Shown here piece after piece: positions 39,972-56,390 of a stretch of DNA of 64,000 bases. The notes beneath the pieces are model-generated. The model saw only the letters and a list, made by a program, of their open reading frames with translations, ran no database searches and was not told where the DNA came from. The stretch comes from Alphaproteobacteria bacterium. GTDB lineage: Bacteria > Pseudomonadota > Alphaproteobacteria > UBA7887. The stretch is from the NCBI GenBank assembly GCA_965200095.1, contig OZ241350.1, positions 1,912,215-1,976,214 on the forward strand. Direction: 5' to 3'. The stretch's first letter is position 1. Every line of letters begins with the position of its first letter. The position numbers and the translations under genes were made by a program.

Positions 39972-40641
39972 CGACGCATCGCTGTTCGCGCGCCTCCGCG
40001 CCTCGTGCGCGAAAGAATGGCGCGCCTATTGCCGTCATCGCTTCGTCGCCGGCATCGCCGACGGCAGCCTGCCGGAAGGCGCGTTCCGCCATTACCTCGT
40101 TCAGGACTATCTGTTCCTGATCCAGTTCGCCCGCGCTTATGCGCTCGCGGCGTACAAGGCGGACAGGGTAGAAGACATGCGCGCCGCCGCGACCACGCTT
40201 TCCGGCATTCTCGATACCGAAATGGGCCTGCATGTCCGCTATTGCGGAGAATGGGGACTCGACGAGGCGGAGATGGCGGCGACCCCGGAAGCGCTGGAGA
40301 CCGTCGCCTACACCCGCTTCGCGCTGGATTGCGGCCAGGCCGGCGATCTGCTCGATCTGCTCGTCGTCCTCGCGCCCTGCGTCGTGGGCTATGGCGAGAT
40401 CGGCCGGCGCCTCGGCGCCGACCCGGCAACGAAGCGCGAGGGCAACCCCTATGCGGGCTGGATCGAAACCTACGCCGCCGCCGACTACCGGGCGGTTGCC
40501 GACGGCGCGCGCGCGCAGCTCGACCGTCTCGCGGACAGGTCCGGCGCCGCGGCCCGTTTCCCGCGCCTGAGTGCGCTCTTCGCCCAGGCCACCCGGCTGG
40601 AGATCGGCTTCTGGGACATGGGCTGGGCGGCGGGCCGATGA
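39958..40641 (+). CDS. tenA: TenA family thiaminase II / aminopyrimidine aminohydrolase
   Basis: FRHYLVQDYLFLIQFARAYALAAYKA is a typical TenA helix. Catalytic Cys context VLAPCVVGYGEIG. Confidence 0.7.
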   Translation: MPPHDDASLFARLRASCAKEWRAYCRHRFVAGIADGSLPEGAFRHYLVQDYLFLIQFARAYALAAYKADRVEDMRAAATTLSGILDTEMGLHVRYCGEWGLDEAEMAATPEALETVAYTRFALDCGQAGDLLDLLVVLAPCVVGYGEIGRRLGADPATKREGNPYAGWIETYAAADYRAVADGARAQLDRLADRSGAAARFPRLSALFAQATRLEIGFWDMGWAAGR

Positions 40642-40836
40642 GGGAGCGGCGCCAGGGCATGGTTTCCCAATTTGTGGCGTGGCGTGCTTGACACGCCGTA
40701 TGATCGGCAATAGCCTGTGCGCGATTGGATAAATGTCCGACAGTCGTCGGGTCGTTACATGTATCTTGAACGGTTGCCCGACCACGCGACGGCAATGTGT
40801 CGATGCGTTCGCCGAAAAATAATGATGGAGGAGAAA

Positions 40837-41705
40837 ATGTCGAAGAAATCCAAGAAAGGTCCTGTCGTAGTATCGGTGATCAACCTTAAGGGCGGGGTTG
40901 GAAAAACAACGGTCGCGGCACTGCTGGCGAGGCATATCGCGAGGGAAAATTTGAATGTGCTGGCTGTGGATTTGGACCCGCAAGCAAATTTGAGTCAAGC
41001 TCTTATGACTGAAAGCGAGTACATCCAATTTATGCATAATAGAGAACCCTAACCATTGTGGAGCTCTTTAATGACTACATACCGCCGTCTCGTGACCGAG
41101 AGGCTCCTACTCGTTTGGACGACGACAAAATCGTGAAATCGGTAGGGTATGGAGAAAGACTGCACCTTATTCCGTCAAGATTTGATTTCTCCGATAATTT
41201 AATCTGTTCGAATAGCGTCGATGCCAGAATTTTTGCGAAATTCATTTCCAGAACCCCTAAAAATATGGACCTCGTCCTGATCGACTGTGCACCGACCGAG
41301 TCGATAATCACCAAAGCCGCCTATCATGCATCCCGTTACATCCTGCTTCCGGTGCGAACCGAATTTCTCTCGACCATTGGATTTCCCCTGTTGAATGAAT
41401 CTTTGAAGAAATTCAGATCCAACAATCCCGGCCATGATATCGATGTATGTGGCGTCCTGATCAATAACAGTAGAACAAGTGGATCTCCACGGGGGCCCCA
41501 TCATGATGATTCCCTGAACGACATCCGACAGAAGGCTGAAGAGTACGGCTGGCCGGTAATGGAAGAGCAGATGTTTCATTCCGACGGATACCCGAAGTTG
41601 ATGAAAGAGGAGTATCCTCATCATGTTGGAAATTCTTGGTATGAATTCCCGCCAATCGCCGAGGAATTTATGAAAACGGTCGGACTGTCTTCGCGGAGGA
41701 AGTGA
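40837..41705 (+). pseudogene. ParA/MinD-like ATPase interrupted by a frameshift and in-frame stop (TAA at 41048-41050)
   Basis: The N-terminal ORF has the deviant Walker A VINLKGGVGKTT and DLDPQANLS. The downstream ORF, in another frame, continues with LIPSRFDFSD and Walker B DLVLIDCAP. The region is low-GC relative to its flanks. Confidence 0.6.
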
Positions 41706-41707
41706 TC

Positions 41708-42190
41708 ATGCAGCGCGACACCCTGCGGAAATTGCTTTCCACCCTCATCGACGATTGCGGGTACGACGCGGTTCGTAAGTCCGTGGAAGCCCTCGATCCC
41801 GGAGCGGCGAGCGCCCGTGCTCCGCGAGGGGCGATTGATAAGAGAAGAGGAAGGCCGCGGGCGAAATTGACGGCGGTTGCCGTAGTGGATTCTTTGGGTA
41901 TTTCGGACGCGGAAAAGAAAGATGCGCTGATGGTTCTTGCACACAAATACGATGCGAAGGAATTTATGCCGAACATCAACCATATCCGTGCTTTCGTGGA
42001 GCGGGAAGGGGTTGACGTTTCCTGTGTCAGATCGAGACAACAGGCTACACATACGGTGTTCAGAAACCTGGGGAATTGGGAAACACGAAAATTGCAGGAA
42101 TTGGAGACGAGGGGCGCGTACGGTCGCCCGAAATCGCTTTCCGTTATCGCCGGCGCTATCGAATCCGTCGGGAGGCAAAATCGCCTTTAA
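41708..42190 (+). CDS. hypothetical protein (160 aa) with AT-hook-like KRRGRPRAK motif, translationally coupled to the ParA-like gene
   Basis: ATG lies 3 nt after the ParA-like stop, preceded by GGAGGAAG. No recognised family. Confidence 0.4.
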   Translation: MQRDTLRKLLSTLIDDCGYDAVRKSVEALDPGAASARAPRGAIDKRRGRPRAKLTAVAVVDSLGISDAEKKDALMVLAHKYDAKEFMPNINHIRAFVEREGVDVSCVRSRQQATHTVFRNLGNWETRKLQELETRGAYGRPKSLSVIAGAIESVGRQNRL

Positions 42191-42205: not shown

Positions 42206-43384
42206 CTATGGGCTGCCCCCGCCGGTCTTGCGATAGGGCGAGAACTCGCGCTCCACGGTTTCGATCTCCCAATCGACGTGACGACGTTCGTGTTCGAGGT
42301 AATCGGCGACGGCATCGCGGAATCGGCTGTCGACGATCCAGTGCGCGCTGTAGGTCCGCCGCGGCATGTAGCCGCGCTGGACCTTGTGCGGCCCTTGCGC
42401 GCCGGCCTCCACCCATTCGAGGCCGCGTTCGATGGCGAAATCGATGGCGCGGTAATAGCACGCCTCGAAATGCAGGAAGTCGTGGCGCTCAATGCACCCC
42501 CAATGGCGCCCGAACAACGCGTTGTCGCCGATCAGGTTCAGCGCGCCCGCGATGTAGCGCCCGTCGCGCCGACACATCGCCAGCGCCACCCGGTCGGCGA
42601 GACGCTCGTGCAACAGTCCGAAAAAGGCGCGGTTGAGATAGGGCGCGCCCCATTTGCGCCGCCCGGTGTCCATATAGAAACGGTGGAAGGCGTCCCAATG
42701 CTCCGGGCGCAGCGCGTCGCCGGTCAGCATCTCGATATCGATGCCGGACGCCCGGACGCCGGCGCGCTCGCGGCGGATGGTCTTGCGTTTGCGCGAATTG
42801 AGCGTCGCCAGGAAGTCGTCGAAACACCCGTAGCCGCGGTTGCGCCAGTGGAACTGCTCGCCGGTGCGCTGAAGGAACCCCGCTTCGCCGAGAGCGCGCC
42901 ACTCCGCCTCCGTGGGGAAGGTGACGTGGAGCGACGACACGCCGATGCGCCCCGCAATTTGGACAGCGGCCGAAATCAGCAGCCGCCGCGCATGGGCCGG
43001 GTCCTGTCCGGGCGCCGTCAGCAGGCGGCCTCCGGTCACCGGCGTGAACGGCGCCGAGCACTGGAGTTTGGGGTAGTAGCAGCCCCCCGCGCGTTCGAAG
43101 GCGTCGGCCCAGCCGTGGTCGAACACATATTCGCCGTAGGAATGGTTCTTGAGATAGAGCGGCATCGCCGCGACGAGCGCGCCCGCCGCGTCCTCGACGA
43201 CGATGTGCTGCGGCAGCCACCCCGTCTCGGCCGAACAACAGCCGCTCTCCTCCAGCGCGTCGAGGAAGGCATGGCTCACGAACGGGTTGCGGGCGCCGTC
43301 CAGGCGGTCCCACGAGGCGGCTTCCAGCTCGCCGAGGCGCGTCAGCGTCCGGGCGGCGTAGCGCGGTTCGGGGCAGGGGGGCAC
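42206..43384 (-). CDS. GNAT-fold acyltransferase (COG3146 / FemAB-like, PF04339 family)
   Basis: About 390 aa; the call rests on overall similarity by recall, not on a specific motif. Moderate confidence. Confidence 0.55.
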   Translation of the reverse strand: MPPCPEPRYAARTLTRLGELEAASWDRLDGARNPFVSHAFLDALEESGCCSAETGWLPQHIVVEDAAGALVAAMPLYLKNHSYGEYVFDHGWADAFERAGGCYYPKLQCSAPFTPVTGGRLLTAPGQDPAHARRLLISAAVQIAGRIGVSSLHVTFPTEAEWRALGEAGFLQRTGEQFHWRNRGYGCFDDFLATLNSRKRKTIRRERAGVRASGIDIEMLTGDALRPEHWDAFHRFYMDTGRRKWGAPYLNRAFFGLLHERLADRVALAMCRRDGRYIAGALNLIGDNALFGRHWGCIERHDFLHFEACYYRAIDFAIERGLEWVEAGAQGPHKVQRGYMPRRTYSAHWIVDSRFRDAVADYLEHERRHVDWEIETVEREFSPYRKTGGGSP

Positions 43385-43406
43385 GCGGCGAAAAGGGGCG
43401 GGGCCC

Positions 43407-44813
43407 CTACGCGGCGCCGGACAGGCCTTCCCGCGCCAGTTCGTCGGCGAACGCCGACAGACCCCGCCCGAATTTGTCGACCATTTCCTCGACGTCGTCT
43501 TCCGAAACGATCAGGGGCGGGGAGAAGCAGACCGTGTTGATCATGCCGCGGCAGATCATCCCCGCGTCCAGCAGGCGGTTCGCCAGACGCGCCGCGATGT
43601 TGCGCTCTGCGTCGAAGGGGACCTTCCGTTCCTTGTCGGCGACGAGTTCGATCCCCGCCATCAGGCCGAGCCCGCGCACCTCTCCCACCAGCGGATGGTC
43701 GGAGAACGCTTCGCGCAGCCGCCGCTGGAAGCAGGTCTCCATCCGCGCCGCGTGCTCCACCAGGCCTTCGCGCTGCATGATTTCGATGGTCTTGAGACCG
43801 GCCGCCGCGGCGACGGGGTGGCCGCCATAGGTATAGCCGTGGGCGAACGGCCCGGTTTCCGGCGAGCCGTCCCTCAGCACCCGCCAGACCTTCTCGGAGA
43901 CGACCGCCGCCGACATGGGCACATAGGCGCTGGTCAGCCCCTTGGCGATGGAGACCATGTCGGGTTCGAGGCCGAAACGCTCGCAGCCGAACCAGCGCCC
44001 GAGCCGCCCGAAACCGCAGATGACCTCGTCGACGATGAACAGGATGTCGTGCCTGGCGAGGACCAGCTGAATCTCGTCGAAATAGCCTTCGGGCGGCGGC
44101 ACCGCGCCGCCGGCGCCCATCACCGGCTCGGCGATGAACGCGGCGCAGGTTTCCGGTCCTTCCTTCTCGATCAGCGCTTCCAGGTCGGCTGCGAGGCGAC
44201 GCGAGAATTCGCGTTCGCTCATGCCCGGCTCCGCCTCCCAATAATGGTGCGGCGCGCCGGTATGCACGAAATCCGCGAGCGGCAGGTTGAACGACCGGTG
44301 CAGGTGCGGCAGGCCGGTCATGCTTGCCGCGGCGACCGTCACGCCGTGATAGCCGCGCCGCCGCGATATGATCTTCCGCTTCCCGGGCTTGCCCCTCAGA
44401 TGGTTGTAATACCACGCGATTTTGACCTGCGTGTCGTTCGCTTCCGACCCCGAATTGCAGAAGAAGACCTTGCTCATGCTGGCCGGCATCAGGCTCAGAA
44501 CCCGGTCGGCGAGGCGTATCGCCGGCTCCTGCGACATCGAGAAGAACAGGTGGTAATAGGCGAGCTTCCGCGCCTGCTCCGCGATGGCCTCGGCCATCTC
44601 CTCGCGCCCGTAACCGATATTGACGCACCACAGACCGCCCATGGCGTCGATGTAGCGCTTGCCGTGGATGTCCTCGACATGCGCGCCTTTCGCGCCGGCG
44701 ACCACCAGAGGCCCCTCGCGCAGGTGGTCGGCGAGAGACGTATAGGGGTGCAGCAGCGACTGCCGGTCCATCTCCTCGAGCGACAGATTGCGCGCGATTT
44801 CGCCTGGGCTCAT
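43407..44813 (-). CDS. class III (omega) aminotransferase
   Basis: FFCNSGSEANDTQVK, IAEPVMGAGGAVPPPEGYF and PLP-lysine region DEVICGFGRLG ... SIAKGLTS. Confidence 0.85.
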   Translation of the reverse strand: MSPGEIARNLSLEEMDRQSLLHPYTSLADHLREGPLVVAGAKGAHVEDIHGKRYIDAMGGLWCVNIGYGREEMAEAIAEQARKLAYYHLFFSMSQEPAIRLADRVLSLMPASMSKVFFCNSGSEANDTQVKIAWYYNHLRGKPGKRKIISRRRGYHGVTVAAASMTGLPHLHRSFNLPLADFVHTGAPHHYWEAEPGMSEREFSRRLAADLEALIEKEGPETCAAFIAEPVMGAGGAVPPPEGYFDEIQLVLARHDILFIVDEVICGFGRLGRWFGCERFGLEPDMVSIAKGLTSAYVPMSAAVVSEKVWRVLRDGSPETGPFAHGYTYGGHPVAAAAGLKTIEIMQREGLVEHAARMETCFQRRLREAFSDHPLVGEVRGLGLMAGIELVADKERKVPFDAERNIAARLANRLLDAGMICRGMINTVCFSPPLIVSEDDVEEMVDKFGRGLSAFADELAREGLSGAA

Positions 44814-44843
44814 GGCAAGCCTCCCAAAGCGCCCGGAGCGGCG

Positions 44844-45311
44844 CTAGCCGATTTCGAAAATACCGTCGACCTCGACGGCCACGCCGCGCGGCAGCGACCC
44901 CGCGCCGACCGCGAAGCGCGCGTGCCGCCCGGCGTCGCCGAACACCGACACCATCAAATCCGAAGCTCCGTCGGCGACCTCGGGATGCCGGGCGAACGAC
45001 TCCGTCGCGTTGACGAACACGCCCAGTTTGACGCAACGCCGGACGCGGTCGAGATCGCCGCCGCATGCCGCCTTCAACTGCGCGATCAGGTTGAGGCCGC
45101 ACAGGCGCGCAGCTTCCTGCCCGACGCTTGCGTCGAACTCCGCCCCGACCTTGCCGATATGCCGAATCTTCCCCTCGTCGAAGGGGATCTGCCCGGCGAT
45201 GAAAACGAGCGACCCGGCGACCGTGAAGGGGATGTAGTTCGCCGCCGGAGTCGACGGCTCCGGCAGCGCGATACCCAGTTCCGCCAGCTTCTTCTCGACC
45301 CGTCCCGACAT
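44844..45311 (-). CDS. ridA: RidA family protein (YjgF/reactive-intermediate deaminase)
   Basis: The start was trimmed to MSGRVEKKLAELGIALPEP; RidA-like C-terminal region RFAVGAGSLPRGVAVEVDGIFE. Confidence 0.7.
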   Translation of the reverse strand: MSGRVEKKLAELGIALPEPSTPAANYIPFTVAGSLVFIAGQIPFDEGKIRHIGKVGAEFDASVGQEAARLCGLNLIAQLKAACGGDLDRVRRCVKLGVFVNATESFARHPEVADGASDLMVSVFGDAGRHARFAVGAGSLPRGVAVEVDGIFEIG

Positions 45312-45661
45312 GTCCCGTTTCCCGTCCCGCTTTCGTCTCCCCAGCATAGGGGCGGGCGGGCGGCGGCGAAAGCGCAATTCGCCGTCCGCCGTCGATAACG
45401 AAGGATACGGTTGCCCCATGCGCCGCGGGAGCTGTCCGTTTCCGGATCGCCGTCCGGCTTTCCGGTGATGCGCCGCACGGGCCAGCGCGGGGCGACACGC
45501 AAGCGCGACAGCGTCTCTCTGTGTCTCGCATGTGTCCGAACCGGGTCGGCGGGGCGTTGAACTCGCCGCGAAATTCGATTACCGGTTCCGGCGTCGGGAG
45601 ACGGGAGGGAATGCGACGATGATTATGAGCCTCGCGCCGCGCGCGTCCGGATCGTCGAAAT

Positions 45662-45689
45662 CCCCCCCCCCCCCCCCCCCCCCCCCCCC
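45662..45689. repeat. poly-C homopolymer (~28 nt) 26 nt upstream of the adhesin-A start codon
   Basis: Read directly: t + 28 c + g. Confidence 0.9.
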
Positions 45690-45715
45690 GCGCCGGTCGA
45701 TGGGGCGCGGCAAGG

Positions 45716-48700
45716 ATGATCCGCCGGGCCTGCGGGCTGCTGGCGCTGGCCTTCCTCGCCGCCGCGGCTCTTGCCGTCTTCCCTCGCACGGCAGAGGCGG
45801 TGTGCACCGTTAACGCCGCCACGTCGACCGAGGTAAATTTCAGAGCCTCGGCGATAACCTCCAGTTCAATCACGTTTTCGTGGAATCGGCCGTCATGCGC
45901 CAGCGGCGCCGTCTCATGGCGTGTTACCGGGGCCACCCTGACCGGCGGCGGCAACTGCTGCAGTCATGTGTATGCAGACGGTGGGACCATTTCCTCTTCG
46001 ACCGCGTCCGCGCTTGGATGGACGAAGACCGGGCTGAACGCCAATACGACCTACCACTGGCGGGTGCGTATCGACCAGCCGATCACCGAGCGATCCGACT
46101 TCTTCCCCCATAATGCCCGACTGAGCGTCACGACCAAACAGGCGTCGCCGGGGACTCCGGGCGGCGTGACGGTGACGCCGGGGGTAGGCCAGCTCGCCGT
46201 CTCCTGGACCGCCGCAACCAATGCCGGCGGCTACAAGGTGCAGTGGAAATCCGGTTCGCAAGCTTACGACGCCGCGCGTCAGGCGACAGTCGGCAGCGGA
46301 ACGAGCCACACCATTACGAGCCTGACCGCGGGGACCGTATACACCGTGCGGGTCATCGCGACGCGGACCAACGCCGACGACGGACCCGCCTCCGCAGAGC
46401 GGACCGGAACGCCCAAATACTCGCCGCCGGGGACTCCGGGCGGCGTGACAGTGACGCCGGGGGTAGGCCAGCTCGCCGTCTCCTGGACCGCCGCAACCAA
46501 TGCCGGCGGCTACAAGGTGCAGTGGAAGTCCGGCGCGCAGGCTTACGACGCCGCGCGTCAGGCGACAGTCGGCAGCGGAACGAGCCACACCATTACGAGC
46601 CTGACCGCGGGGACCGCATACACCGTGCGGGTCATCGCTACGCGGACCAACGCCGACGACGGACCCGCCTCCGCAGAGCGAACCGGAACCCCGAAGGCTG
46701 CGCCGCCGGGGACTCCGGGCGGCGTGACGGTGACGCCGGGGGTGGGCCAGCTCGCCGTCTCCTGGACCGCCGCAACCAATGCCGGCGGCTACAAGGTGCA
46801 GTGGAAATCCGGTTCGCAAGCATACGACGCCGCGCGTCAGGCGACAGTCGGGAGCGGAACGAGCCATGCTATTACCGGCCTCACCGCAGGGACCGAATAC
46901 ACCGTCCGGGTCATCGCGACGCGGAGCAATGCCGACGACGGACCCGCCTCCGCAGAGCGAACCGGAACCCCGAAGGCTGCGCCGCCGGGGACTCCGGGCG
47001 GCGTAACGGTGACGCCGGGAGTGGGCCAGCTTGCCGTCTCCTGGACCGCCGCGGCCAATGCCGACGGCTACAAGGTGCAGTGGAAATCCGGCTCGCAGAC
47101 TTACGACGCCGCGCGTCAGGCGACAGTCGGCAGCGGAACGAGCCACGCCATTACCGGCTTGAGCGCGGGGACCGAATACGCCGTGCGGGTCGTCGCGACG
47201 CGAAGCAATGCCGACGACGGACCCGCCTCCGCAGAGCGAACCGGAACGCCGAGGGCCGCGCCGTCGGGGGCGCCGGGCGGTGTGACGGTGACGCCGGGGG
47301 CGGGCCGGCTCGCCGTCTCCTGGACCGCCGTGACCGGCGCCGACGGCTACAAGGTGCAGTGGAAATCCGGCGCGCAGACTTACGATGCCGCGCGTCAGGC
47401 GACAGTCGGCGGCAGCACGAGCCACACTATCACCGGCCTCGCCGCGGGAACCGAATACACCGTGCGGGTCATCGCGACGCGAACCGACGCCGACGACGGA
47501 CCCGCCTCCGCAGAGCGAACCGGAACGCCCAAACAATCGCCGCCGGGGGCGCCGGGCGACGTAACGGTGACGCCGGAGGTGGGCCGGCTCGCCGTCTCCT
47601 GGACCGCCGCGACCGATGCCGACGGCTACAAGGTGCAGTGGAAATCCGGCTCGCAGACTTACGACGCCGCGCGTCAGGCGACGGTCGGCAGCGGAACGAG
47701 CCATGCCATTACCGGTCTGACCGCGGGGACCGAATACACCGTGCGGGTCATCGCGACGCGCAGCAACGCCGACGACGGACCCGCCTCCACAGAGCAAACC
47801 GGAACGCCGACGACAGGCAGGATCGATCTGTCGGCGCCGACTCTCGCCGTGACGGCGGGCGGCGCCGGGGAGACCTACACGGTGGTTCTGGGCGCAGCGC
47901 CGGATGGCGACGTCACCGTCGCAATAGCGAGCGACAACGGCGATGTGACGGCGACTCCCGACAGCCTCTCCTTCACGGCGTCGGACTGGAGCGCGCCGCA
48001 GACGGTGACGTTAACTGCGGCGGCGGACGATGACGGCTACGCCGATATGGCGTCGCTGACGCATACGGCGTCGGGCGGCGGTTACGACGGGGTGACGGGG
48101 ACGCTGCCCGTGGCGGTGACGGGCGACAGCAAGGTGAGGGTGGGCGGCGCGGGCGAGACGGTCTACCGGATCCGCGGTCGGACGGTGACGGTGGCGGTGA
48201 TGCCCGGCACGCCGGCGGGCATTGAGATCGACCTTGCGGACCTGCCCGAAGCGCCTTCGGGCGAGGCTCTGACGCTGACCTTCGCGCCTGTGGCGTCTCC
48301 GGCGGCGAGCGACGCTTTCGCCTTCGGGCCGCCGGAGTCGCGGACCGTTGTGGATGTGACGGTGACGGCGGGGCGCGTTTCGTCTCCGGGTCTGCGTCTG
48401 TGCCTTCCGGTTGCGGATGCGGCGCGGGATGCGGCGCGGGGTCGTCCGTTGCTGTTGCTGCGTTACGACGGCAGCGCCTGGGGCGCGGTCGCCGGGTCTG
48501 CGGCGAGCGCGGACGGGTCGCTTGTGTGCGCCGATGGCGTGTCGTCGTTTTCGCCGTTTGCGGTTGGGTATGCGGACACGGCGCCGTCGTTTGCGGCGGA
48601 TGCGGCCATCGCGGCGCTGGCGTTCACGGCGGGCGAGGCCATTGAGCCTGTGACCTTGCCTGCGGCGACGGGGGGCGACGGGACGTTCTACGAGCTGGGT

Positions 48701-50269
48701 CCGCGGCCATTGGCGCTGCCGCCGGGTCTGGATATCGACGATGCGACGCGGGTTCTTTCGGGGACGCCGACGGAGGCGTTCGCGCAGCGTCGCTACACAT
48801 GGACGGCGACGGACATCGACGGGGAGAGCGATACGCTGTCGTTCACGATGGAGGTGCTGCCGGCGCTTGCGGCGGCGCGGGAGCGTTTGCGGGCGGTGAA
48901 CGAGTCGGTTCTGCCGGAGTTGTCGCGGGCGATGTGGGGGAGCGTCATCGATGCGCTGACGGGGCGCCTTGAGAGCGCGGGTCTTTCGGTCGGCGACGGC
49001 GCGGGCGTCGCGGCGTCGGGTCTTGCGGGGGCTTCGGAGTTCCTGCGGTCGAACGATGGCGCGCCTGGGGCGGGTTCTGGTTCGTGGCGGGAGTTGCTGG
49101 CGGGCGAATCCTTCGTGCTGGGCGTGGGTTCGGAAGCGGGCGGCGGCGGCGGCGGTTCGCCGGTAATGGTCTGGGGTTCGGGGGACTGGCGCAAACTGTC
49201 GCTGGACGATGCGGTTCTGGACTGGTCCGGGGAGTTGCTCTCGGCGCATGCGGGGGTGGATGCGCGGCTTGGCGGGAGTGTTCGCGGCGGCGTTGCGGCG
49301 TCATGGTTCGAGAGTGAGATCGACTACACGGATCGCAGCGGCGAGGCGGCGGTTTCGGGCGTTCACGAGAGCCGGCTGCCGGCGGTGCATCCCTGGGCGG
49401 GGTGGTTCGGCTCGGACGGCTCGCGTCTGTGGGGGGTGCTGGGCTATGGCGAGGGCGAGGTCGAGATAGCGGATGCGGACCTTGCGGAGCGTTTCGGGGT
49501 CCAGAAGAGCGACAGCGCGTTTCTGGCGGCGGCGGCGGGGGGTTCGGTTCCGGTTGCGTCGTCCGGCGTGTTTGCGCTTGCGCTGAAGGGTTCGGGGGAG
49601 GCGACGCGCTATTCGGTGGAGGACAACGGCGCGGCGATTGCGGCGGTGTCTGTGGACACGCAGCGGTTGCGGCTGTCTGCGACGGGCAGCCGGCGCTGGG
49701 TTCTGGCGGACGGCGGGACGCTTACGCCGTCGCTGGAGGCGGGGGCGCGCTGGGACGGCGGCGACGGGGAGACGGGCGCAGGCGTGGAGTTGGGGGGCGG
49801 CGTGGAGTGGACGCTTCCGTCGCATGGCCTGGCGGTTGCGGCGCGGGGCCGGACGCTGGCGGCCCATGCGGGCGCTGCGGAGGAATGGGGCGTGTCGGGT
49901 TCGGCGCGGCTTTCGCCGCCCGGCGGGCGCGGTCTGTCTCTGGCGCTGTCGCCGCGCTGGGGGGCTTCGGACAGCGGCCTGTCGCGTCTGTGGGACGAGG
50001 GCGTTGCGGGGCGCGGGTCTCCGGTCGGCGGAAGCGACGCGGGCGCGGCGGGTCTGGAGGCGGAGTTGGGCTACGGGTTCCGCGAGGGGGCCGGTCTGCT
50101 GACGCCGTCTGCGGGGTTCGGCTACGGGGACGGCGGCGCGCGGCGCTGGCTGGTGGGAACGCGGTTCGAGCTCGGCCCGGCGCTTGCGGTCTCGGTGGCG
50201 ACCGAACGCCGCGACGGCGCCGCCGACGCCGGACACGCCCTCCGCATCGACCTGCGCATGAACTGGTAG
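45716..50269 (+). CDS. giant secreted repeat protein A (1517 aa): signal peptide, 7 FN3-like domains, Calx-beta/cadherin-like and He_PIG-like domains, C-terminal autotransporter-like beta-barrel
   Basis: Signal peptide MIRRACGLLALAFLAAAALAVFPRTAEA. FN3-like units of ~93 aa ending YTVRVIATR. Calx-like segment VTVAIASDNGDVTATPDSLSFTASDW. Helical linker LPALAAARERLRAVNESVLPEL. C-terminus LRIDLRMNW shows an alternating hydrophobic pattern and a terminal Trp. Confidence 0.8.
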   Translation: MIRRACGLLALAFLAAAALAVFPRTAEAVCTVNAATSTEVNFRASAITSSSITFSWNRPSCASGAVSWRVTGATLTGGGNCCSHVYADGGTISSSTASALGWTKTGLNANTTYHWRVRIDQPITERSDFFPHNARLSVTTKQASPGTPGGVTVTPGVGQLAVSWTAATNAGGYKVQWKSGSQAYDAARQATVGSGTSHTITSLTAGTVYTVRVIATRTNADDGPASAERTGTPKYSPPGTPGGVTVTPGVGQLAVSWTAATNAGGYKVQWKSGAQAYDAARQATVGSGTSHTITSLTAGTAYTVRVIATRTNADDGPASAERTGTPKAAPPGTPGGVTVTPGVGQLAVSWTAATNAGGYKVQWKSGSQAYDAARQATVGSGTSHAITGLTAGTEYTVRVIATRSNADDGPASAERTGTPKAAPPGTPGGVTVTPGVGQLAVSWTAAANADGYKVQWKSGSQTYDAARQATVGSGTSHAITGLSAGTEYAVRVVATRSNADDGPASAERTGTPRAAPSGAPGGVTVTPGAGRLAVSWTAVTGADGYKVQWKSGAQTYDAARQATVGGSTSHTITGLAAGTEYTVRVIATRTDADDGPASAERTGTPKQSPPGAPGDVTVTPEVGRLAVSWTAATDADGYKVQWKSGSQTYDAARQATVGSGTSHAITGLTAGTEYTVRVIATRSNADDGPASTEQTGTPTTGRIDLSAPTLAVTAGGAGETYTVVLGAAPDGDVTVAIASDNGDVTATPDSLSFTASDWSAPQTVTLTAAADDDGYADMASLTHTASGGGYDGVTGTLPVAVTGDSKVRVGGAGETVYRIRGRTVTVAVMPGTPAGIEIDLADLPEAPSGEALTLTFAPVASPAASDAFAFGPPESRTVVDVTVTAGRVSSPGLRLCLPVADAARDAARGRPLLLLRYDGSAWGAVAGSAASADGSLVCADGVSSFSPFAVGYADTAPSFAADAAIAALAFTAGEAIEPVTLPAATGGDGTFYELGPRPLALPPGLDIDDATRVLSGTPTEAFAQRRYTWTATDIDGESDTLSFTMEVLPALAAARERLRAVNESVLPELSRAMWGSVIDALTGRLESAGLSVGDGAGVAASGLAGASEFLRSNDGAPGAGSGSWRELLAGESFVLGVGSEAGGGGGGSPVMVWGSGDWRKLSLDDAVLDWSGELLSAHAGVDARLGGSVRGGVAASWFESEIDYTDRSGEAAVSGVHESRLPAVHPWAGWFGSDGSRLWGVLGYGEGEVEIADADLAERFGVQKSDSAFLAAAAGGSVPVASSGVFALALKGSGEATRYSVEDNGAAIAAVSVDTQRLRLSATGSRRWVLADGGTLTPSLEAGARWDGGDGETGAGVELGGGVEWTLPSHGLAVAARGRTLAAHAGAAEEWGVSGSARLSPPGGRGLSLALSPRWGASDSGLSRLWDEGVAGRGSPVGGSDAGAAGLEAELGYGFREGAGLLTPSAGFGYGDGGARRWLVGTRFELGPALAVSVATERRDGAADAGHALRIDLRMNW
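46141..47820 (+). repeat. six near-perfect 279-bp tandem repeats (one FN3-like domain each) inside adhesin A
   Basis: Repeat starts at about 46147, 46426, 46705, 46984, 47263 and 47542. Identity drifts only slightly between copies. Confidence 0.85.
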
Positions 50270-50344
50270 CGACCGGCGCGCGCGGCGACGGCGCGGGTGC
50301 GCGATACGACCGACGGGAAATCGAGGCGGCGCCGGGCGCGCGCC

Positions 50345-50614
50345 CTACACGACGCCGAACAGGCGCGCGGCCATCGCCAGAACGATCGCGAACATGAAGC
50401 CGAGCACCCACTTGACGGCCCACAATTCCGCCTTGACGGCGCCGATGTCACCCTTGAGTTCGGCTCTGAGTTCGGCGATGTCGCCCTTGGTGGCGACGCC
50501 CTCGCTCACCGCCTTGCGCACGGTTATGGCGATGGCCTTGGCTTGCGGCTCGGGCAGACCCGTGCGGGTCAAGGCCTCGGCCGCCTCCAGCGTGTCGAAC
50601 AACTCAGTGGACAT
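50345..50614 (-). CDS. DUF1640-like coiled-coil protein with C-terminal TM anchor, copy 1 (89 aa; two 11-mer repeats)
   Basis: MSTELFDTLEAAEALTRTGLPEPQAKAIAITVRKAV ... KGDIAELRAELKGDIGAVKAEL ... WVLGFMFAIVLAMAARLFGVV matches the DUF1640 N-terminus, 11-mer repeats and terminal TM. The start was trimmed from ORF 50345..50683. Confidence 0.6.
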   Translation of the reverse strand: MSTELFDTLEAAEALTRTGLPEPQAKAIAITVRKAVSEGVATKGDIAELRAELKGDIGAVKAELWAVKWVLGFMFAIVLAMAARLFGVV

Positions 50615-50644
50615 GCCGCGTCTTCTACGCCCGGTATCGGGGAC

Positions 50645-50673
50645 TGTCAAGCCGCCTGCGCTCACGGCGCAGG
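50645..50673 (-). promoter_or_regulatory. candidate promoter (-35 TTGACA) with an abutting inverted-repeat operator CCTGCGCTCACGGCGCAGG upstream of DUF1640 copy 1
   Basis: On the minus strand: palindrome, TTGACA, 17 nt, TAGAAG, 7 nt, ATG. There is no SD. Repeated upstream of copies 2 and 3. Confidence 0.4.
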
Positions 50674-50990
50674 GCAATCGCACTTGGGCGTCATTTTGGG
50701 TTGGGGTTTAGGGGTTTTGGTTGAGCGGATCGTGTCGAGGAGGAAGTTGTTGTCCCATCCGGCGCGCTTGAGTTTTCCTCGCATGGCGTCTTTTCCGGGT
50801 TCGATGCGCGCGACGTTCAGGGCCATGCGGCGCAGCAGTGCGAGGTTCTCCGGCCCATTCCCGGTGCGGTTGCGCTGCCGATCCTCGTTCATGGTCACGT
50901 CCAATACCCAATGCAACGAGTTCCCGATCGCCCAATGGCCGCGCACCGCGTGCCGGAAGCGCTCCGGGGAGAGTTCGGCGCCCATGATGT
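50662..50990 (-). pseudogene. ISAs1/IS4-like transposase C-terminal fragment
   Basis: HWAIGNSLHWVLDVTMNEDRQRNRTGNGPENLALLRRMALN matches the conserved DDE-transposase C-terminus. The upstream catalytic part is missing. Confidence 0.5.
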
Positions 50991-51387
50991 AGTAGCGCGT
51001 CTCGGTTGTCGTCCCGGTTCGGGTCTCGATGCGCCCGCGGCTGCCGTAGGTGTCTCGATGGCGCCGTCGGCCCGCATCCCCTGCGCCGGGCTGTCCGGGT
51101 AGAGTTTCGAGTCTCCTCTCACGGTCGCCCGTGCCCCCTGTTTCCATGATGGCGCTTGCGATGGCGACGCCGCTATCGGTCGGTCATGGAAATCGGGCGG
51201 CGGTTGCTTTCCGGCAGCGTCCGGGTTGCCGTAGCGAACGGCGTTGTCGATGCGTCTTGACATGCGGTCGAAATCGGGTTACCGGTGCGGGCCATAATTC
51301 ATGAAGGTGGGGGCGATGGATGTCGGTAATCTCTCGGCCGGAACGCGGCGGCGAACCGGACGCCGGTTTACGATGTCGCCCCTGAAT

Positions 51388-51405
51388 CCCCCCCCCCCCC
51401 CCCCC
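51388..51405. repeat. poly-C homopolymer (18 nt) inside the 5' end of the adhesin-B reading frame
   Basis: ccc + cccccccccc + ccccc, read directly. Confidence 0.9.
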
Positions 51406-51428
51406 GCGCCTTCGTCGCGGCGGCGTGG

Positions 51429-54400
51429 TTGGCTTTTCTGTTCGTCGCAGCGGCGCAGCCGGCCGTCGCGGCGGAGTGGATCCATAGCCCGTCTCCGGCG
51501 ATCCTGTATAAAAGCAGCCTGAATAACGCGCAAGTTTATTTGGCGCTGGATGGAAACTCGCCCCGTTTCAAAGTCACCAGCGATCTGAATACAAACAGAA
51601 GCACCTGGTTCGCCTTGTCGGGCGTCCCCAGCGGGGTCACTCTCTCGGTCAGCGCCGTTGTCGGTCAAACCTCGCCGCATCAGGGCGCCTTGTTGACGTT
51701 GAGCTATAGCGGCAATTTCACCAGCGACTGGGTCCTTACGATCACGGTCCCTTCGGCGGCCTTCTTCACAAGGGCGCGCCAGGTGGTCTACACGATCCCG
51801 GTGCAGACGGACAATACGAAAAGCCTGTGGACGGGGGCAGTATCGGGCCAGGCGACGGAAGCCGGGGGACAGGCGACGTTCCCGGTGCGGCTGCGGGCGG
51901 CGCCTTCGCAGGACGTAACCGTGACGGTAACGAGCCGGGATACGGGCGAGGGCTCGGTATCGCCGTCCACGCTCACCTTCAGCTCTTCGAATTGGCACAC
52001 GCCGCAGACTGTGACGGTGACCGGCGTGGACGATAACGTGGACGACGGCACTCAAAACTGGAACGTCCGCCTCGATCCGTCGAGCGCCGATACGACCTAT
52101 AACGGCCTGACGAACGTGGACGTGGCGGTAACCACCACGGACAATGACGCCCTACCGACGGCGACGCTGTCGCTGAGCCAGTCTTCGATTTCCGAGAACG
52201 GCGGTTCTGCGACAGTGACCGCGGCGCTCTCGCATCCGTCGAGTGGGGCGACGGCGCTGACGGTGGCGGCTTCGCCGGGTTCGGGGACGGATTTCACACA
52301 GACGGGAACGACGCTGAACATCGCTGCGGGGGCGACGAGCAGCACCGGAACGGTGACCATCGCAGCAACCAACAATAGCGTCGACGCGCCGGACAAGAGC
52401 GTGACGGTCTCGGCGACGGCGAGCGGGGCCAGCAACGTCGCGAACCCGTCGTCGGTGACGCTGACGCTGACGGACGACGAGGCGGCGCCGACGGCGACGC
52501 TGGCGTTGTCGAACAATTCGATTCCGGAGAACGGCGGGACATCGACGGTGAGCGCGACGCTGTCGCACGCCTCCAGCGCGTCTTCGACGATCACCGTTTC
52601 GACGGGGACGGGGTTCACCCTGGGTTCGGCGACGACGTTGAATATCGCGGCGGGAGCGACGAGCAGCAGCGGGACGGTGACGCTCACGGCGGATAACGAC
52701 AACGTGCATTCGGGAGACCGGTCGGTCACGGTGACGGGTTCGATGGCGAACACCCAGGGCGCGGGTTCCGTGACGGGGGCTTCGTTGACGATCGAGGAAG
52801 ACGAGGCGTTGCCGACGGCGACGCTGGCGTTGTCGCGTTCGAGCATCGACGAGAGCGGGGCGGACGGCGGTTCGACGGTGACCGCCGGCCTGAGCGGCGC
52901 GTCGAGCGAAGCGACGGTGCTGACGGTGTCGACGTCTCCGGGCGCCGACACGGTCGCAGGCGACTTCACGCAGTCGGGAACGGTGCTGACCATTGCGGCG
53001 GGGGAGACGTCCAGCACCGGCGCGGTGACGATCGCGGCCGTGGACAACGATGCCGACACGCCGAACAAGAGCGTGACGGTCTCGGCGACGGCGGCCGGAG
53101 GCAACGGCGTCGCGGATCCGTCCCCCCTGACGCTGACAGTGACGGACGATGAGGGGCCGCCGACGGTGACGCTGTCGCTGTCGCCGCCGTCGATCGACGA
53201 GAACGGGGGCGTGACGCGGGTGTCGGCGACGCTCTCGCGCCCGTCGGCCGTGGAGACGACGGTAACGGTGTCGGCGTCCCCGGGCGCTGACGCGGTTGCA
53301 GGCGACTTCGCCCTGAGTTCGAACAAGACGCTGACCATCGCCGCGGGAGCGACGACCGGCGCCGGAACGGTGACGATCGCGGCCGTGGACAATGATGTCG
53401 ACGCGCCGGACAAGAGCGTGACGGTTTCGGGCGCGGCGTCGAACGCTGTGGCCGAGGCTGCCGGGCAGACCGTGGCCGTGACCGGAGCGACGCTGACGGT
53501 GACGGACGACGACGAGACGGGGATGCTCATCGCGCCGTCGTCGCTCGTCGCGGAAGCGGGCGGCGCCGGGACGGAGTACACGGTCGTACTCGCCAGCGAG
53601 CCCGTCGGCGACGTGACGGTGGCGATAGCGAGCGACTCGGCGGAAGTGACGGTCAGCCCCGACAGTCTTGTCTTCACGGCGTCGGACTGGAGCGCGCCGC
53701 AGACGGTGACGTTAACCGCAGCGGCGGACGATGACGGTTACGCCGATGCGGCGTCGCTGACGCATACGGCGTCGGGCGGCGGTTACGACGGGGTGACGGG
53801 GACGCTGCCCGTGGCGGTGACGGGCGACAGCAAGGTGAGGGTGGGCGGCGCGGGCGAGACGGTTTACCGGATCCGCGGTCGGACGGTGACGGTGGCGGTG
53901 ATGCCCGGCACGCCGGCGGGCATTGAGATCGACCTTGCGGACCTGCCCGAAGCGCCTTCGGGCGAGGCTCTGACGCTGACCTTCGCGCCTGTGGCGTCTC
54001 CGGCGGCGAGCGACGCTTTCGCCTTCGGGCCGCCGGAGTCGCGGACCGTTGTGGATGTGACGGTGACGGCGGGGCGCGTTTCGTCTCCGGGTCTGCGTCT
54101 GTGCCTTCCGGTTGCGGATGCGGCGCGGGATGCGGCGCGGGGTCGTCCGTTGCTGTTGCTGCGTTACAACGGCGACGCCTGGGGCGCGGTCGCCGGGTCT
54201 GCGGCGAGCGCGGACGGGTCGCTTGTGTGCGCCGATGGCGTGTCGTCGTTTTCGCCGTTTGCGGTTGGGTATGCGGACACGGCGCCGTCGTTTGCGGCGG
54301 ATGCGGCCATCGCGGCGCTGGCGTTCACGGCGGGCGAGGCCATTGAGCCTGTGACCCTGCCTGCGGCGACGGGGGGCGACTGGACGATCCACGAGCTGGG

Positions 54401-55970
54401 TCCCCGGCCATTGGCGCTGCCGCCGGGTCTGGGTTTCGACCGTGACACGCGGGTTCTTTCGGGGACTCCGACGGAGGCGTTCGCGCAGCGTCGCTACACA
54501 TGGACGGCGACGGACATCGATGGGGAGAGCGATACGCTGTCGTTCACGATGGAGGTGCTGCCGGCGCTTGCGGCGGCGCGGGAGCGTTTGCGGGCGGTGA
54601 ACGAGTCGGTTCTGCCGGAGTTGTCGCGGGCGATGTGGGGGAGCGTCATCGATGCGCTGACGGGGCGCCTTGAGAGCGCGGGTCTTTCGGTCGGCGACGG
54701 CGCGGGCGTCGCGGCGTCGGGTCTTGCGGGGGCTTCGGAGTTCCTGCGGTCGAACGATGGCGCGCCTGGGGCGGGTTCTGGTTCGTGGCGGGAGTTGCTG
54801 GCGGGCGAATCCTTCGTGCTGGGCGTGGGTTCGGAAGCGGGCGGCGGCGGCGGCGGTTCGCCGGTAATGGTCTGGGGTTCGGGGGACTGGCGCAAACTGT
54901 CGCTGGACGATGCGGTTCTGGACTGGTCCGGGGAGTTGCTCTCGGCGCATGCGGGGGTGGATGCGCGGCTTGGCGGGAGTGTTCGCGGCGGCGTTGCGGC
55001 GTCATGGTTCGAGAGTGAGATCGACTACACGGATCGCAGCGGCGAGGCGGCGGTTTCGGGCGTTCACGAGAGCCGGCTGCCGGCGGTGCATCCCTGGGCG
55101 GGGTGGTTCGGCTCGGACGGCTCGCGTCTGTGGGGGGTGCTGGGCTATGGCGAGGGCGAGGTCGAGATAGCGGATGCGGACCTTGCGGAGCGTTTCGGGG
55201 TCCAGAAGAGCGACAGCGCGTTTCTGGCGGCGGCGGCGGGGGGTTCGGTTCCGGTTGCGTCGTCCGGCGTGTTTGCGCTTGCGCTGAAGGGTTCGGGGGA
55301 GGCGACGCGCTATTCGGTGGAGGACAACGGCGCGGCGATTGCGGCGGTGTCTGTGGACACGCAGCGGTTGCGGCTGTCTGCGACGGGCAGCCGGCGCTGG
55401 GTTCTGGCGGACGGCGGGACGCTTACGCCGTCGCTGGAGGCGGGGGCGCGCTGGGACGGCGGCGACGGGGAGACGGGCGCAGGCGTGGAGTTGGGGGGCG
55501 GCGTGGAGTGGACGCTTCCGTCGCATGGCCTGGCGGTTGCGGCGCGGGGCCGGACGCTGGCGGCCCATGCGGGCGCTGCGGAGGAATGGGGCGTGTCGGG
55601 TTCGGCGCGGCTTTCGCCGCCCGGCGGGCGCGGTCTGTCTCTGGCGCTGTCGCCGCGCTGGGGGGCTTCGGACAGCGGCCTGTCGCGTCTGTGGGACGAG
55701 GGCGTTGCGGGGCGCGGGTCTCCGGTCGGCGGAAGCGACGCGGGCGCGGCGGGTCTGGAGGCGGAGTTGGGCTACGGGTTCCGCGAGGGGGCCGGTCTGC
55801 TGACGCCGTCTGCGGGGTTCGGCTACGGGGACGGCGGCGCGCGGCGCTGGCTGGTGGGAACGCGGTTCGACCTCGGCCCGGCGCTTGCGGTCTCGGTGGC
55901 GACCGAACGCCGCGACGGCGCCGCCGACGCCGGACACGCCCTCCGCATCGACCTGCGCATGAACTGGTAG
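51429..55970 (+). CDS. giant secreted repeat protein B (about 1513 aa from TTG): 5 Calx-beta-like domains plus the shared Calx/He_PIG/linker/beta-barrel module; apparently phase-OFF
   Basis: Calx-beta-like units [25 protein letters not shown]...NIAAGATSSTGTVTIAA...DKSVTVSATA. The last ~900 aa are near-identical to protein A and end LRIDLRMNW. The in-frame ORF begins only at TTG 51429, in the middle of a signal-peptide h-region. The ATG at 51373 (MSPLN-polyP) is out of frame by one C. Confidence 0.75.
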   Translation: MAFLFVAAAQPAVAAEWIHSPSPAILYKSSLNNAQVYLALDGNSPRFKVTSDLNTNRSTWFALSGVPSGVTLSVSAVVGQTSPHQGALLTLSYSGNFTSDWVLTITVPSAAFFTRARQVVYTIPVQTDNTKSLWTGAVSGQATEAGGQATFPVRLRAAPSQDVTVTVTSRDTGEGSVSPSTLTFSSSNWHTPQTVTVTGVDDNVDDGTQNWNVRLDPSSADTTYNGLTNVDVAVTTTDNDALPTATLSLSQSSISENGGSATVTAALSHPSSGATALTVAASPGSGTDFTQTGTTLNIAAGATSSTGTVTIAATNNSVDAPDKSVTVSATASGASNVANPSSVTLTLTDDEAAPTATLALSNNSIPENGGTSTVSATLSHASSASSTITVSTGTGFTLGSATTLNIAAGATSSSGTVTLTADNDNVHSGDRSVTVTGSMANTQGAGSVTGASLTIEEDEALPTATLALSRSSIDESGADGGSTVTAGLSGASSEATVLTVSTSPGADTVAGDFTQSGTVLTIAAGETSSTGAVTIAAVDNDADTPNKSVTVSATAAGGNGVADPSPLTLTVTDDEGPPTVTLSLSPPSIDENGGVTRVSATLSRPSAVETTVTVSASPGADAVAGDFALSSNKTLTIAAGATTGAGTVTIAAVDNDVDAPDKSVTVSGAASNAVAEAAGQTVAVTGATLTVTDDDETGMLIAPSSLVAEAGGAGTEYTVVLASEPVGDVTVAIASDSAEVTVSPDSLVFTASDWSAPQTVTLTAAADDDGYADAASLTHTASGGGYDGVTGTLPVAVTGDSKVRVGGAGETVYRIRGRTVTVAVMPGTPAGIEIDLADLPEAPSGEALTLTFAPVASPAASDAFAFGPPESRTVVDVTVTAGRVSSPGLRLCLPVADAARDAARGRPLLLLRYNGDAWGAVAGSAASADGSLVCADGVSSFSPFAVGYADTAPSFAADAAIAALAFTAGEAIEPVTLPAATGGDWTIHELGPRPLALPPGLGFDRDTRVLSGTPTEAFAQRRYTWTATDIDGESDTLSFTMEVLPALAAARERLRAVNESVLPELSRAMWGSVIDALTGRLESAGLSVGDGAGVAASGLAGASEFLRSNDGAPGAGSGSWRELLAGESFVLGVGSEAGGGGGGSPVMVWGSGDWRKLSLDDAVLDWSGELLSAHAGVDARLGGSVRGGVAASWFESEIDYTDRSGEAAVSGVHESRLPAVHPWAGWFGSDGSRLWGVLGYGEGEVEIADADLAERFGVQKSDSAFLAAAAGGSVPVASSGVFALALKGSGEATRYSVEDNGAAIAAVSVDTQRLRLSATGSRRWVLADGGTLTPSLEAGARWDGGDGETGAGVELGGGVEWTLPSHGLAVAARGRTLAAHAGAAEEWGVSGSARLSPPGGRGLSLALSPRWGASDSGLSRLWDEGVAGRGSPVGGSDAGAAGLEAELGYGFREGAGLLTPSAGFGYGDGGARRWLVGTRFDLGPALAVSVATERRDGAADAGHALRIDLRMNW

Positions 55971-56390
55971 CGGCCGACCCGCAAGGCGGGTGTGCGATAC
56001 GACCGACGGGAAATCGATGCGGCGCCGGGCGCGCGCCCTACACGACGCCGAACAGGCGCGCGGCCATCGCCAGAACGATCGCGAACATGAAGCCGAGCAC
56101 CCACTTGACGGCCCACAATTCCGCCTTGACGGCGCCGATGTCACCCTTGAGTTCGGCCCTGAGTTCGGCGATGTCGCCCTTGAGTTCGGCTCTGAGTTCG
56201 CTGATGTCGCCCTTGGTGGCGACGCCCTCGCTCACCGCCTTGCGCACGGTTATGGCGATGGCCTTGGCTTGCGGCTCGGGCAGACCCGTGCGGGTCAAGG
56301 CCTCGGCCGCCTCCAGCGTGTCGAACAACTCAGTGGACATGCCGCGTCTTCTACGCCCGGTATCGGGGACTGTCAAGCCGCCAGCAATTC
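53670..56390. repeat. segmental duplication copy 2
   Basis: See 47970-50690. Confidence 0.85.
56038..56340 (-). CDS. DUF1640-like protein, copy 2 (100 aa; three 11-mer repeats)
   Basis: Same N- and C-termini as copy 1. Has KGDISELRAELKGDIAELRAELKGDIGAVKAEL. Confidence 0.6.
   Translation of the reverse strand: MSTELFDTLEAAEALTRTGLPEPQAKAIAITVRKAVSEGVATKGDISELRAELKGDIAELRAELKGDIGAVKAELWAVKWVLGFMFAIVLAMAARLFGVV

Follow-up and report, generated by a model that had tools for sequence, protein, structure and literature searches.

Phase variation through simple sequence repeats is textbook knowledge in cultured pathogens of the genera Neisseria, Haemophilus, Campylobacter, Bordetella and Bartonella. 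Here we describe a run of 28 cytosines (C28) in a stretch of 64,000 nucleotides (nt) from an uncultured marine alphaproteobacterium (GTDB lineage UBA7887; GenBank assembly GCA_965200095.1, contig OZ241350.1, positions 1,912,215 to 1,976,214 of the forward strand), which we call the window and whose coordinates are used throughout. The run lies just upstream of the signal peptide of gene A, which encodes a giant autotransporter. As its length differs greatly among relatives, we take it most likely to be an on/off switch that is prone to slippage and of a kind already known, now in uncultured marine bacteria. The nearest described counterparts are nalP and ausI of Neisseria, in which poly-C tracts within the coding regions cause ON/OFF switching (PMC5472700). 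Gene A resembles them in being a classical autotransporter gene with poly-C on the coding strand near its 5' end, where we propose a frameshift by slipped-strand mispairing. It is unlike them in that the tract precedes the signal peptide and lies in a leader with its own Shine-Dalgarno (SD) sequence and ATG, and in that gene A possesses a second, internal start codon with which a stop codon overlaps; moreover, its host is not a human pathogen, and its switching is a prediction. The Neisseria tracts, at about 8-14 nt, are also much shorter than the one described here.

Homopolymers at the 5' ends of genes have been proposed as a general device for switching or inactivation (PMC2831843). In Bartonella, the adhesin gene badE carries mononucleotide repeats early in its open reading frame (ORF) that switch experimentally, and length changes sweep during host passage (PMC11466379). 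The organism is again an alphaproteobacterium, the adhesin belongs to the autotransporter superfamily, and the homopolymers lie early in the reading frame; unlike gene A, however, badE encodes a trimeric (type Vc) rather than a classical (type Va) autotransporter, its repeats are about 9-11 nt long, and a separate leader ORF has not been described for it. The opa genes of Neisseria, about 11 paralogues, contain CTCTT repeats in the region that codes for the signal peptide. Like the family of gene A, they form a multi-paralogue set of outer-membrane adhesins with one repeat per copy in the part that is removed on export, where the frame changes and the mature protein does not. Their copies can switch in combination, and opa is the closest analogue in logic, although its repeat is a pentamer and its products are small β-barrel proteins. 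In Bordetella fim2 and fim3 and in Neisseria opc and porA, poly-C or poly-G lies between or beside the -35 and -10 elements. These genes share with gene A a poly-C tract upstream of a surface-protein gene, whereas at gene A about 105 nt, including an SD-ATG, separate the promoter-like element from the tract downstream of it. Finally, in lic1 and lic2 of Haemophilus influenzae the repeats follow several starts in different frames and give strong, weak or no expression. As at our locus, multiple starts together with a 5' repeat yield three states instead of two, but the lic repeat is a tetranucleotide, its alternative starts all lie upstream of the repeat, and there is no overlap of a stop with a start.

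The tract of gene A consists of exactly 28 C at 45662-45689 on the + strand, bounded by T 45661 and G 45690; it starts 43 nt from ATG 45619, the first codon of the leader, and ends 26 nt before ATG 45716, the internal start. As a preliminary description of the window had stated, it is the longest homopolymer of the 64 kb. The next are C18 (51388-51405), C9 (57260-57268) and G8 (37294-37301), all remaining C runs being at most 7 nt long, and runs of at least 10 nt are restricted to the two autotransporter genes of the window, each at its 5' end. The C18 tract belongs to gene B, the paralogue that the same description had named. With the base composition of the window (C = 0.337; G+C = 69%), 2.6e-9 runs of C28 or longer and 1.4e-4 runs of C18 or longer are expected in 64 kb, and neither C28 nor C18 is attributable to chance. 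C28 therefore exceeds the chance length by far and is long enough to slip, as a contingency locus would have it. An 870-codon ORF on the minus strand that spans the tract (43342-45954) was rejected as a shadow ORF of high-G+C DNA; the genuine genes for the aminotransferase and YjgF occupy part of the same DNA in different frames. The C9 run is intergenic, about 120 nt upstream of an EipB-like gene (57389-58204); its counterpart in the syntenic scaffold L002 is C4, in surroundings that are 89% identical, so that this run varies in length as well.

We compared the tract with those of related loci, which come from metagenome scaffolds and species-representative genomes and bear L-numbers; many of their 5' ends, in genes of more than 4000 codons, lie beyond the fetched DNA. 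L052 is an allele of gene A from another assembly, 93% identical overall and situated in a different genomic neighbourhood, and its tract is C17. The 62 nt before and the 64 nt after the tract differ from the leader in the window by one mismatch in 126, against about nine expected at the 7% divergence of the gene, so that the flanks are more conserved than the gene itself. L001 (C18) and L020 (C9) are orthologues of the N-terminal part of A from genomes that are about 97% identical to each other, and after the tract both continue with the same CCGGTCGATGGGGCGCGGC(A/G)AGGATG sequence as A. The syntenic L002 has C12 at the corresponding place. Close relatives thus differ in the length of the tract but hardly in its flanks, which is a hallmark of contingency loci, and the classification of the element as slippage-prone and phase-variable in the preliminary description agrees with these pairs (C28/C17; C18/C9). 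That description had also called for a comparison of homologous loci and had allowed for an assembly artefact; lengths of 9, 17, 18 and 28 at one site in independent, differently made assemblies exclude the artefact and indicate hypermutability.

The tract is a recurrent feature of a large family. It is defined by the C-terminal module that A and B share and numbers 2017 cluster representatives at E <= 1e-30. Scanning species-representative genomes gave 44 loci, mostly on complete metagenome-assembled chromosomes labelled Alphaproteobacteria, with at least nine paralogues in one genome. Of the 17 genome loci whose 5' end was captured, 9 have a tract of C12-C30 that follows an SD-ATG and precedes the signal peptide. 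In all, at least 12 other family members from independent genomes have C12-C30 at the same kind of position: C22 in L012, C19 in L013, C20 in L014, C15 in L015, C16 in L018, C18 in L024, C30 in L025, C16 in L030, C14 in L033 and L042, and C13 in L051. The distant members L053 and L054 have C24 before genes of 4385 and 6192 codons, respectively. On the other hand, the tract is absent or no longer than C6 in L047, L048, L049, L050 and several loci from outside the Alphaproteobacteria. In every case the 5' tract is C on the sense strand, never G.

Could such runs simply be without a regulatory role, as a mutational by-product (for example of weak mismatch repair), the mark of a decaying pseudogene or an artefact of assembly? 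Both genes of the window and most of their relatives are out of frame with the upstream ATG, the ORFs of L020, L025 and L030 are broken, and lengths of 24-30 nt go far beyond what a switch needs. Nevertheless, tracts occupy the same site in independent assemblies made by different methods, and long runs are confined to two autotransporter 5' ends in the window; in about 1 Mb of related loci, too, most long runs are found at the 5' ends of family members and on the sense strand. The near-perfect flanks beside a gene that has diverged by 7% and the giant ORFs of 1,500-6,000 codons that are still open downstream of the tracts also speak against neglect, and we regard this explanation as very improbable. 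As for the broken genes, the main ORFs of L020 (OZ241357.1), L025 and L030 are interrupted, with for instance 211 codons open past the tract in L020, and some of these paralogues may be decaying or carry further frameshifts.

Two observations concern the wider distribution of long runs. The longest tract seen, G30 on the + strand of L025 (5755-5784), which is C30 on the sense strand of the gene, precedes a different secreted protein (MSTRTLAATLAPGLLLALALWAGHAPA/Q..., with glycine/threonine-rich β-helix-like repeats), and the tracts are therefore not confined to one type of passenger. Poly-G also occurs about 50 nt past the autotransporter stop codon in L014 (G18, 12203-12220) and L025 (G14, 12183-12196), where on the opposite strand it follows a small ORF with an SD-ATG (MQTFSLPRHN...).

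The position of the tract relative to promoter and ribosome-binding sites determines what a change in length can do. The predicted promoter of A (45557..45585, + strand) consists of a -35-like TTGAAC (45557-45562), a 17-nt spacer and a -10-like TACCGG (45580-45585), and that of B (51257..51285, + strand) of TTGACA (51257-51262), N17 and TACCGG (51280-51285). The element of A, about 105 nt upstream of the tract, is the sole conserved promoter-like one. The same geometry is present in eight related loci, where the -35 box lies 59-71 nt before an upstream SD-ATG, and the layout TTGAC[A]/TTGAnn, N17-18, SD-ATG is seen in B, L001, L020, L002, L012, L015 and L052. The -35-like box is CTTGACAGG in B, L001, L020, L012, L015 and L018 and TTGAAC, TTGATC or TTGACC in A, L002 and L052. 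Close relatives thus share one order: the -35-like box, a spacer of 17-18 nt, a start with a strong SD 59-71 nt from the -35, a leader of 4-40 codons, the tract, usually GCGC, 0-25 codons and the signal peptide. From this conservation only we infer the promoter, and with it a transcript of A that starts upstream of ATG 45619.

The SD sequence GGGAGGGA of ATG 45619 (45603..45610, + strand; 8-nt spacing) is identical in L052 and L002, and its calculated duplex with the anti-SD (-10.8 kcal/mol) is the strongest of the region. The corresponding values for other upstream starts are -10.8 kcal/mol in L002, -10.2 in L001 and L020, -8.9 in L012, -8.6 in L015, -8.3 in L025 and -7.8 for ATG 51316 of B, and each locus has an SD-ATG leader that reads into its tract. 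The internal start is different. The letters AAGGA that the preliminary description took for its ribosome-binding site are present, but AAGG (45712-45715) directly abuts the ATG (45716-45718), so that the spacing is 0, and the duplex is weak at -4.7 kcal/mol. A mini-ORF of three codons, ATG CGA CGA TGA (ATG 45611-45613), starts 1 nt past the strong SD and overlaps ATG 45619; it is probably not functional, as its ATG is ACG in the allele L052.

The preliminary description had preferred a model in which the tract lies in the promoter or the untranslated region (UTR) of the leader, its length tuning transcription initiation or the access of ribosomes to ATG 45716 irrespective of frame. An effect on initiation would come about through spacer geometry or activator phasing, as in the promoters of Bordetella fim or Neisseria opc. 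In favour of such a model, a complete signal peptide opens at ATG 45716 just 26 nt past the tract, and L012, L015, L024 and L025 have a good SD and start downstream of the tract; in the minimum-free-energy fold, moreover, the beginning of the tract pairs with the G-rich SD region upstream. According to the promoter prediction, however, the tract lies neither between nor beside a -35 and a -10: the conserved -35-like box lies upstream of it at a distance of about 105 nt, with a strong SD-ATG following, and nothing like a -10 hexamer occurs in the G+C-rich 26 nt that lead from the tract to ATG 45716. A strict sigma-70 scan of 45300-45800 likewise gave no promoter. Lengths of 9, 17, 18 and 28 are hard to fit to any spacer optimum, and a change of one base in a run of 28 would hardly affect RNA pairing. 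The leader RNA folds less stably than shuffled sequence (z = +1.85), which counts against this model and also led us to reject a structured riboregulator; an Rfam scan of 45200-51700 found no family, with one sub-threshold chance match only. As set out below, a start codon downstream of the tract is lacking in gene B and L013, and six family members are in frame through it, both of which speak against such a model. We therefore consider a promoter or UTR-length effect unlikely.

What, then, does the tract do to the reading frame? In the present C28 frame, three-frame translation gives a leader ORF of A (45619..45813, + strand) that reads MIMSLAPRASGSSKS-P9-RRSMGRGKDD...VHR; the upstream polyproline peptide noticed earlier is therefore real and begins at ATG 45619. 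Past the tract this frame remains open for 40 codons up to TAA 45811-45813 and covers the first 98 nt of A out of frame. ATG 45619 and ATG 45716 are 97 nt apart and hence one base out of frame, and their fusion requires C27 or C30. With a tract length of 0 mod 3 (C27, C30), the leader is fused to MIRRACGLL... and adds 32 residues (MIMSLAPRASGSSKS-P9-RAGRWGAAR). With 2 mod 3 (C26, C29, and C17 in L052), it ends at TGA 45717-45719, which overlaps ATG 45716 in an ATGA (45716..45719, + strand). With 1 mod 3, the present state (C28), it reads through into gene A out of frame. An extension of some 30 amino acids had been thought awkward in the preliminary description, yet such a leader is the usual layout of the family.

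The leader ORF of gene B in the present C18 frame (51316..51522, + strand; SD AAGGTGGGGG, -7.8 kcal/mol) ends at TGA 51520-51522 and is out of the main frame, while a tract (51388..51405, + strand) of C19 or C16 would join ATG 51316 or ATG 51373 to RAFVAAAWLAFLFVAAAQPAVA/AEW. Past the tract, neither ATG nor GTG occurs before the hydrophobic core is reached, and the sole start-like codon, TTG 51429, lies inside the core. L013 likewise lacks an ATG or GTG between the tract and the core of its signal peptide. In these two genes the tract must therefore be within the ORF, and B is predicted to be a plain in-ORF switch that is OFF at C18. Furthermore, in L014, L015, L018, L025, L053 and L054 the frame set by the upstream ATG runs on across the tract into that of the giant ORF, which stays open for 584-6192 codons. 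Contrary to the preference expressed earlier, the evidence thus favours a translational frame switch over a promoter-spacer or UTR-length model.

We propose that C28 is a hypermutable simple-sequence repeat and the core of a contingency locus inside a translated leader of gene A, in which the length of the tract sets the frame; on the sequence evidence we hold this to be probable, if well short of certain. Translation of the leader is suggested by the strong upstream SDs, the lack of a later start in B and L013, and the in-frame loci. Transcription would start about 25-35 nt before ATG 45619, from the promoter-like element about 105 nt upstream of the tract, and ribosomes would load at GGGAGGGA/ATG 45619 and make polyproline from the tract, in which every frame reads CCC, a proline codon. 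Slipped-strand mispairing during replication would alter the length of the tract, as the comparison of alleles suggests, and thereby shift the frame in which leader ribosomes arrive at the signal-peptide ORF. At C27 or C30 the gene would be ON, with a 32-residue, polyproline-containing N-terminal extension that signal peptidase would remove together with the signal peptide. As the fused extension would be part of the cleaved signal peptide, this would explain why a variable polyproline is tolerated there. At C26 or C29, and at C17 in L052, the stop at the ATGA would permit termination-reinitiation, with the gene ON or low; this step is the least certain. At the present C28 only the internal ATG with its weak SD would be left, and the gene would be OFF or low. 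As sequenced, A (C28) and B (C18) are both predicted to be OFF or low, although any sequencing platform may err in the exact length of a homopolymer of 28 nt and the present frame state of gene A is thus uncertain. In position, too, the tract agrees with a contingency locus, being placed so that a change in length would be expected to alter expression. With many paralogues per genome, each carrying a tract, a population would display varying subsets of giant adhesins.

Several points weigh against this frame switch or limit it. Both the switching and its effect on expression are predictions from sequence. A strict scan of 45300-45800 for sigma-70 promoters and terminators detected nothing and so lends no support to the promoter, and the leader RNA has no unusual structure. 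Translation could also begin at ATG 45716, with its complete signal peptide, without any part being played by the leader, and in L012, L015, L024 and L025, each with its good SD and start after the tract, the tract may belong to an upstream ORF or a 5' UTR and not to the ORF of the protein itself. A run of 28 nt may also slip in transcription and translation, which would blur a clean ON/OFF. The share of fused frames, 6-7 of about 20 loci, equals the one-third expected at random and gives no sign of frame selection. Across these loci fused, stop-at-start and other states stand at about 1:1:1, a split that is expected from assemblies sampling a switching population as well as from random frames and is therefore uninformative. 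An NTGA overlap of stop and start is found in A, L052, L020, L015, L018, L025, L030, L033, L042, L049, L050 and L051, and L047 has the overlap in the form TGATG, but L001 lacks it. Given that adenine is at +4 in 43% of 30 neighbouring genes, the enrichment of NTGA is weak (p about 0.01-0.03, from loci that are not independent).

The corresponding region of L002 (4964-5000) deserves a separate remark. After C12 its leader stops at an ATGA, and the ATG of this overlap would give a signal peptide MRLPRG-LLLAALAAL... that is one base out of the main frame, with the shift possibly at GGGG 4986-4989. Possible causes are a further frameshift, a mistake in the assembly and decay of the gene.

A switch that works purely by DNA slippage would not need C to be on the sense strand without exception, and that it always is suggests a role for the poly(C) RNA or for polyproline, for example in Rho loading or in slowing that depends on elongation factor P (EF-P). 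Rho attenuators that depend on an upstream ORF are established, among them tnaC, speFL, corL and Bordetella cruR, and Rho-loading (Rut) sites are unstructured RNAs biased to C over G, of which about 30 nt can bind Rho tightly (PMC12360218). As we propose for the locus of gene A, they have a short translated leader beside C-rich RNA upstream of the regulated gene; unlike it, they sense a ligand and have no hypermutable tract, and a role of Rho is hypothetical here. The tract might thus act as an attenuator: a ribosome stalled on polyproline in an EF-P-dependent manner would shield the poly(C) RNA and RNA polymerase would continue, whereas an untranslated or quickly vacated tract would recruit Rho and terminate transcription, the length grading the effect and the frame mattering through the site of the leader stop. 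The sense-strand bias, the SD-ATG leader that reads into the tract at each locus and the Rut-like composition and suitable length of poly(C) are in favour of this model, and Rho-dependent polarity after frameshifts is reported for the phase-variable gene siaD in the part of PMC3025981 that cites Lavitola 1999. An attenuator is, however, an inference throughout. It leaves the missing start after the tract in B and L013 unexplained, and the strand bias could equally reflect common descent of the 5' cassette or a preference for polyproline over polyglycine. It appears to us unlikely; it is compatible with the frame switch, to which it would add a layer and which it would not replace.

An element combining both is conceivable, and we put it forward as a speculation with a modest chance of being correct. 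Slippage at the tract by replicating DNA, by RNA polymerase on a hybrid that consists of a single base throughout and by tRNA-Pro (a frame shift on CCC-C) would act together with Rho loading and the ATGA overlap, and the result would be a leaky three-state rheostat with polarity. Tentatively, and with a similarly small likelihood, the RNA of the tract would be shielded from Rho only while a ribosome crosses the polyproline codons with EF-P. If this were true, OFF cells would avoid transcribing adhesin genes of 4.5-20 kb, and it would explain why the sense strand carries C and never G and why tracts have grown to 24-30 nt. With dozens of paralogues, giant adhesins of the fn3/Calx-beta kind, it would amount to bet-hedging of surface display by uncultured marine bacteria that are associated with a host.

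Gene A itself (45716..50269, + strand) encodes a classical autotransporter of 1517 amino acids with seven fn3 domains (5.7e-59), an Ig-like He_PIG domain and a C-terminal β-barrel. The complete signal peptide that the preliminary description read from ATG 45716 was recovered by translation of the 1517-codon ORF. This Sec-type peptide, MIRRACGLLALAFLAAAALAVFPRTAEA (45716..45799, + strand), was read by eye from the translation, predictor-free, with RR in the n-region, a hydrophobic core and AEA/V. The last 350 residues (encoded by 49217-50266) match PF03797 with 30.5 bits against a cut-off of 26 (E = 4e-7), a domain that many homologues also have, and the protein ends in tryptophan (...RMNW). 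A signal peptide and a large passenger are thus combined with a PF03797 barrel, as is characteristic of type Va autotransporters. The main reading frame of gene B (51408..55970, + strand) also encodes an autotransporter; its passenger is Calx-beta/LapA-like, and its C-terminal module is that of A.

The 3' module common to both genes (47832..50659 in A, 53533..56385 in B, both on the + strand) is 96% identical over 2862 nt by blastn, and the last 713 amino acids of A are 98.6% identical to those of B. It spans the end of the passenger, the β-barrel and about 390 nt of 3' flank, whereas the N-terminal passengers are unrelated. On the side of A the module ends at an insertion-sequence remnant, a DDE_Tnp_1 transposase fragment (50662..51144, - strand; Pfam 4.1e-5) located between A and B. 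The copy boundary adjoins this remnant, L002 has a single gene here, and L052 holds its allele of gene A elsewhere; the pattern of the module suggests modular shuffling or gene conversion among paralogues. The order of genes is FemAB-like, class III aminotransferase, YjgF-like, the autotransporters, EipB-like and a DinB-type polymerase, and the flanking genes are syntenic with the metagenome scaffold L002 at 91-93% nucleotide identity, with one autotransporter at the L002 site.

An exact sequence look-up of protein A found no record, and scans of JGI metagenomes with the 26-mer following the tract and with the N-terminal domain of A gave no match. A protein search with the N-terminus of A, in a service that seems to miss proteins considerably longer than the query, likewise gave no match; under the same length limit, the N-terminus of B retrieved Calx-beta fragments only and no B allele. 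Elsewhere in the window, a fused N6-methylase/Eco57I-type restriction-modification gene of 1144 amino acids (3193-6627) adjoins a stretch of low G+C (0.595; 6001-8000), and a second such stretch (0.564; 40001-42000) contains a ParA-like AAA_31 gene. Both low-G+C stretches may be acquired islands.

What is unusual about this locus is the length of the tracts, up to C28-C30, the separate SD-ATG leader before an otherwise complete signal peptide, and the uncultured marine host. In a literature search we found no paper on repeat-mediated phase variation in the genomes of sponge or marine symbionts. A sponge as the source is a guess prompted by the accompanying taxa, metagenome-assembled genomes of Binatia, Nitrospirales, Dehalococcoidia and Acidimicrobiia. 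There is also a practical consequence, namely that at the tract gene callers choose a wrong start or cut these genes short and that an ON/OFF state taken from an assembly hinges on an error-prone homopolymer count. The same logic as in the cultured pathogens would then operate in high-G+C marine Alphaproteobacteria that are known only from metagenome assemblies. The carriers are members of a very large family of giant autotransporter adhesins, whose passengers are built of fn3, Calx-beta and Ig-like modules. If their tracts do switch, these bacteria would vary their surface stochastically, which would imply strong fluctuating selection, for example by a host, grazers or phages.

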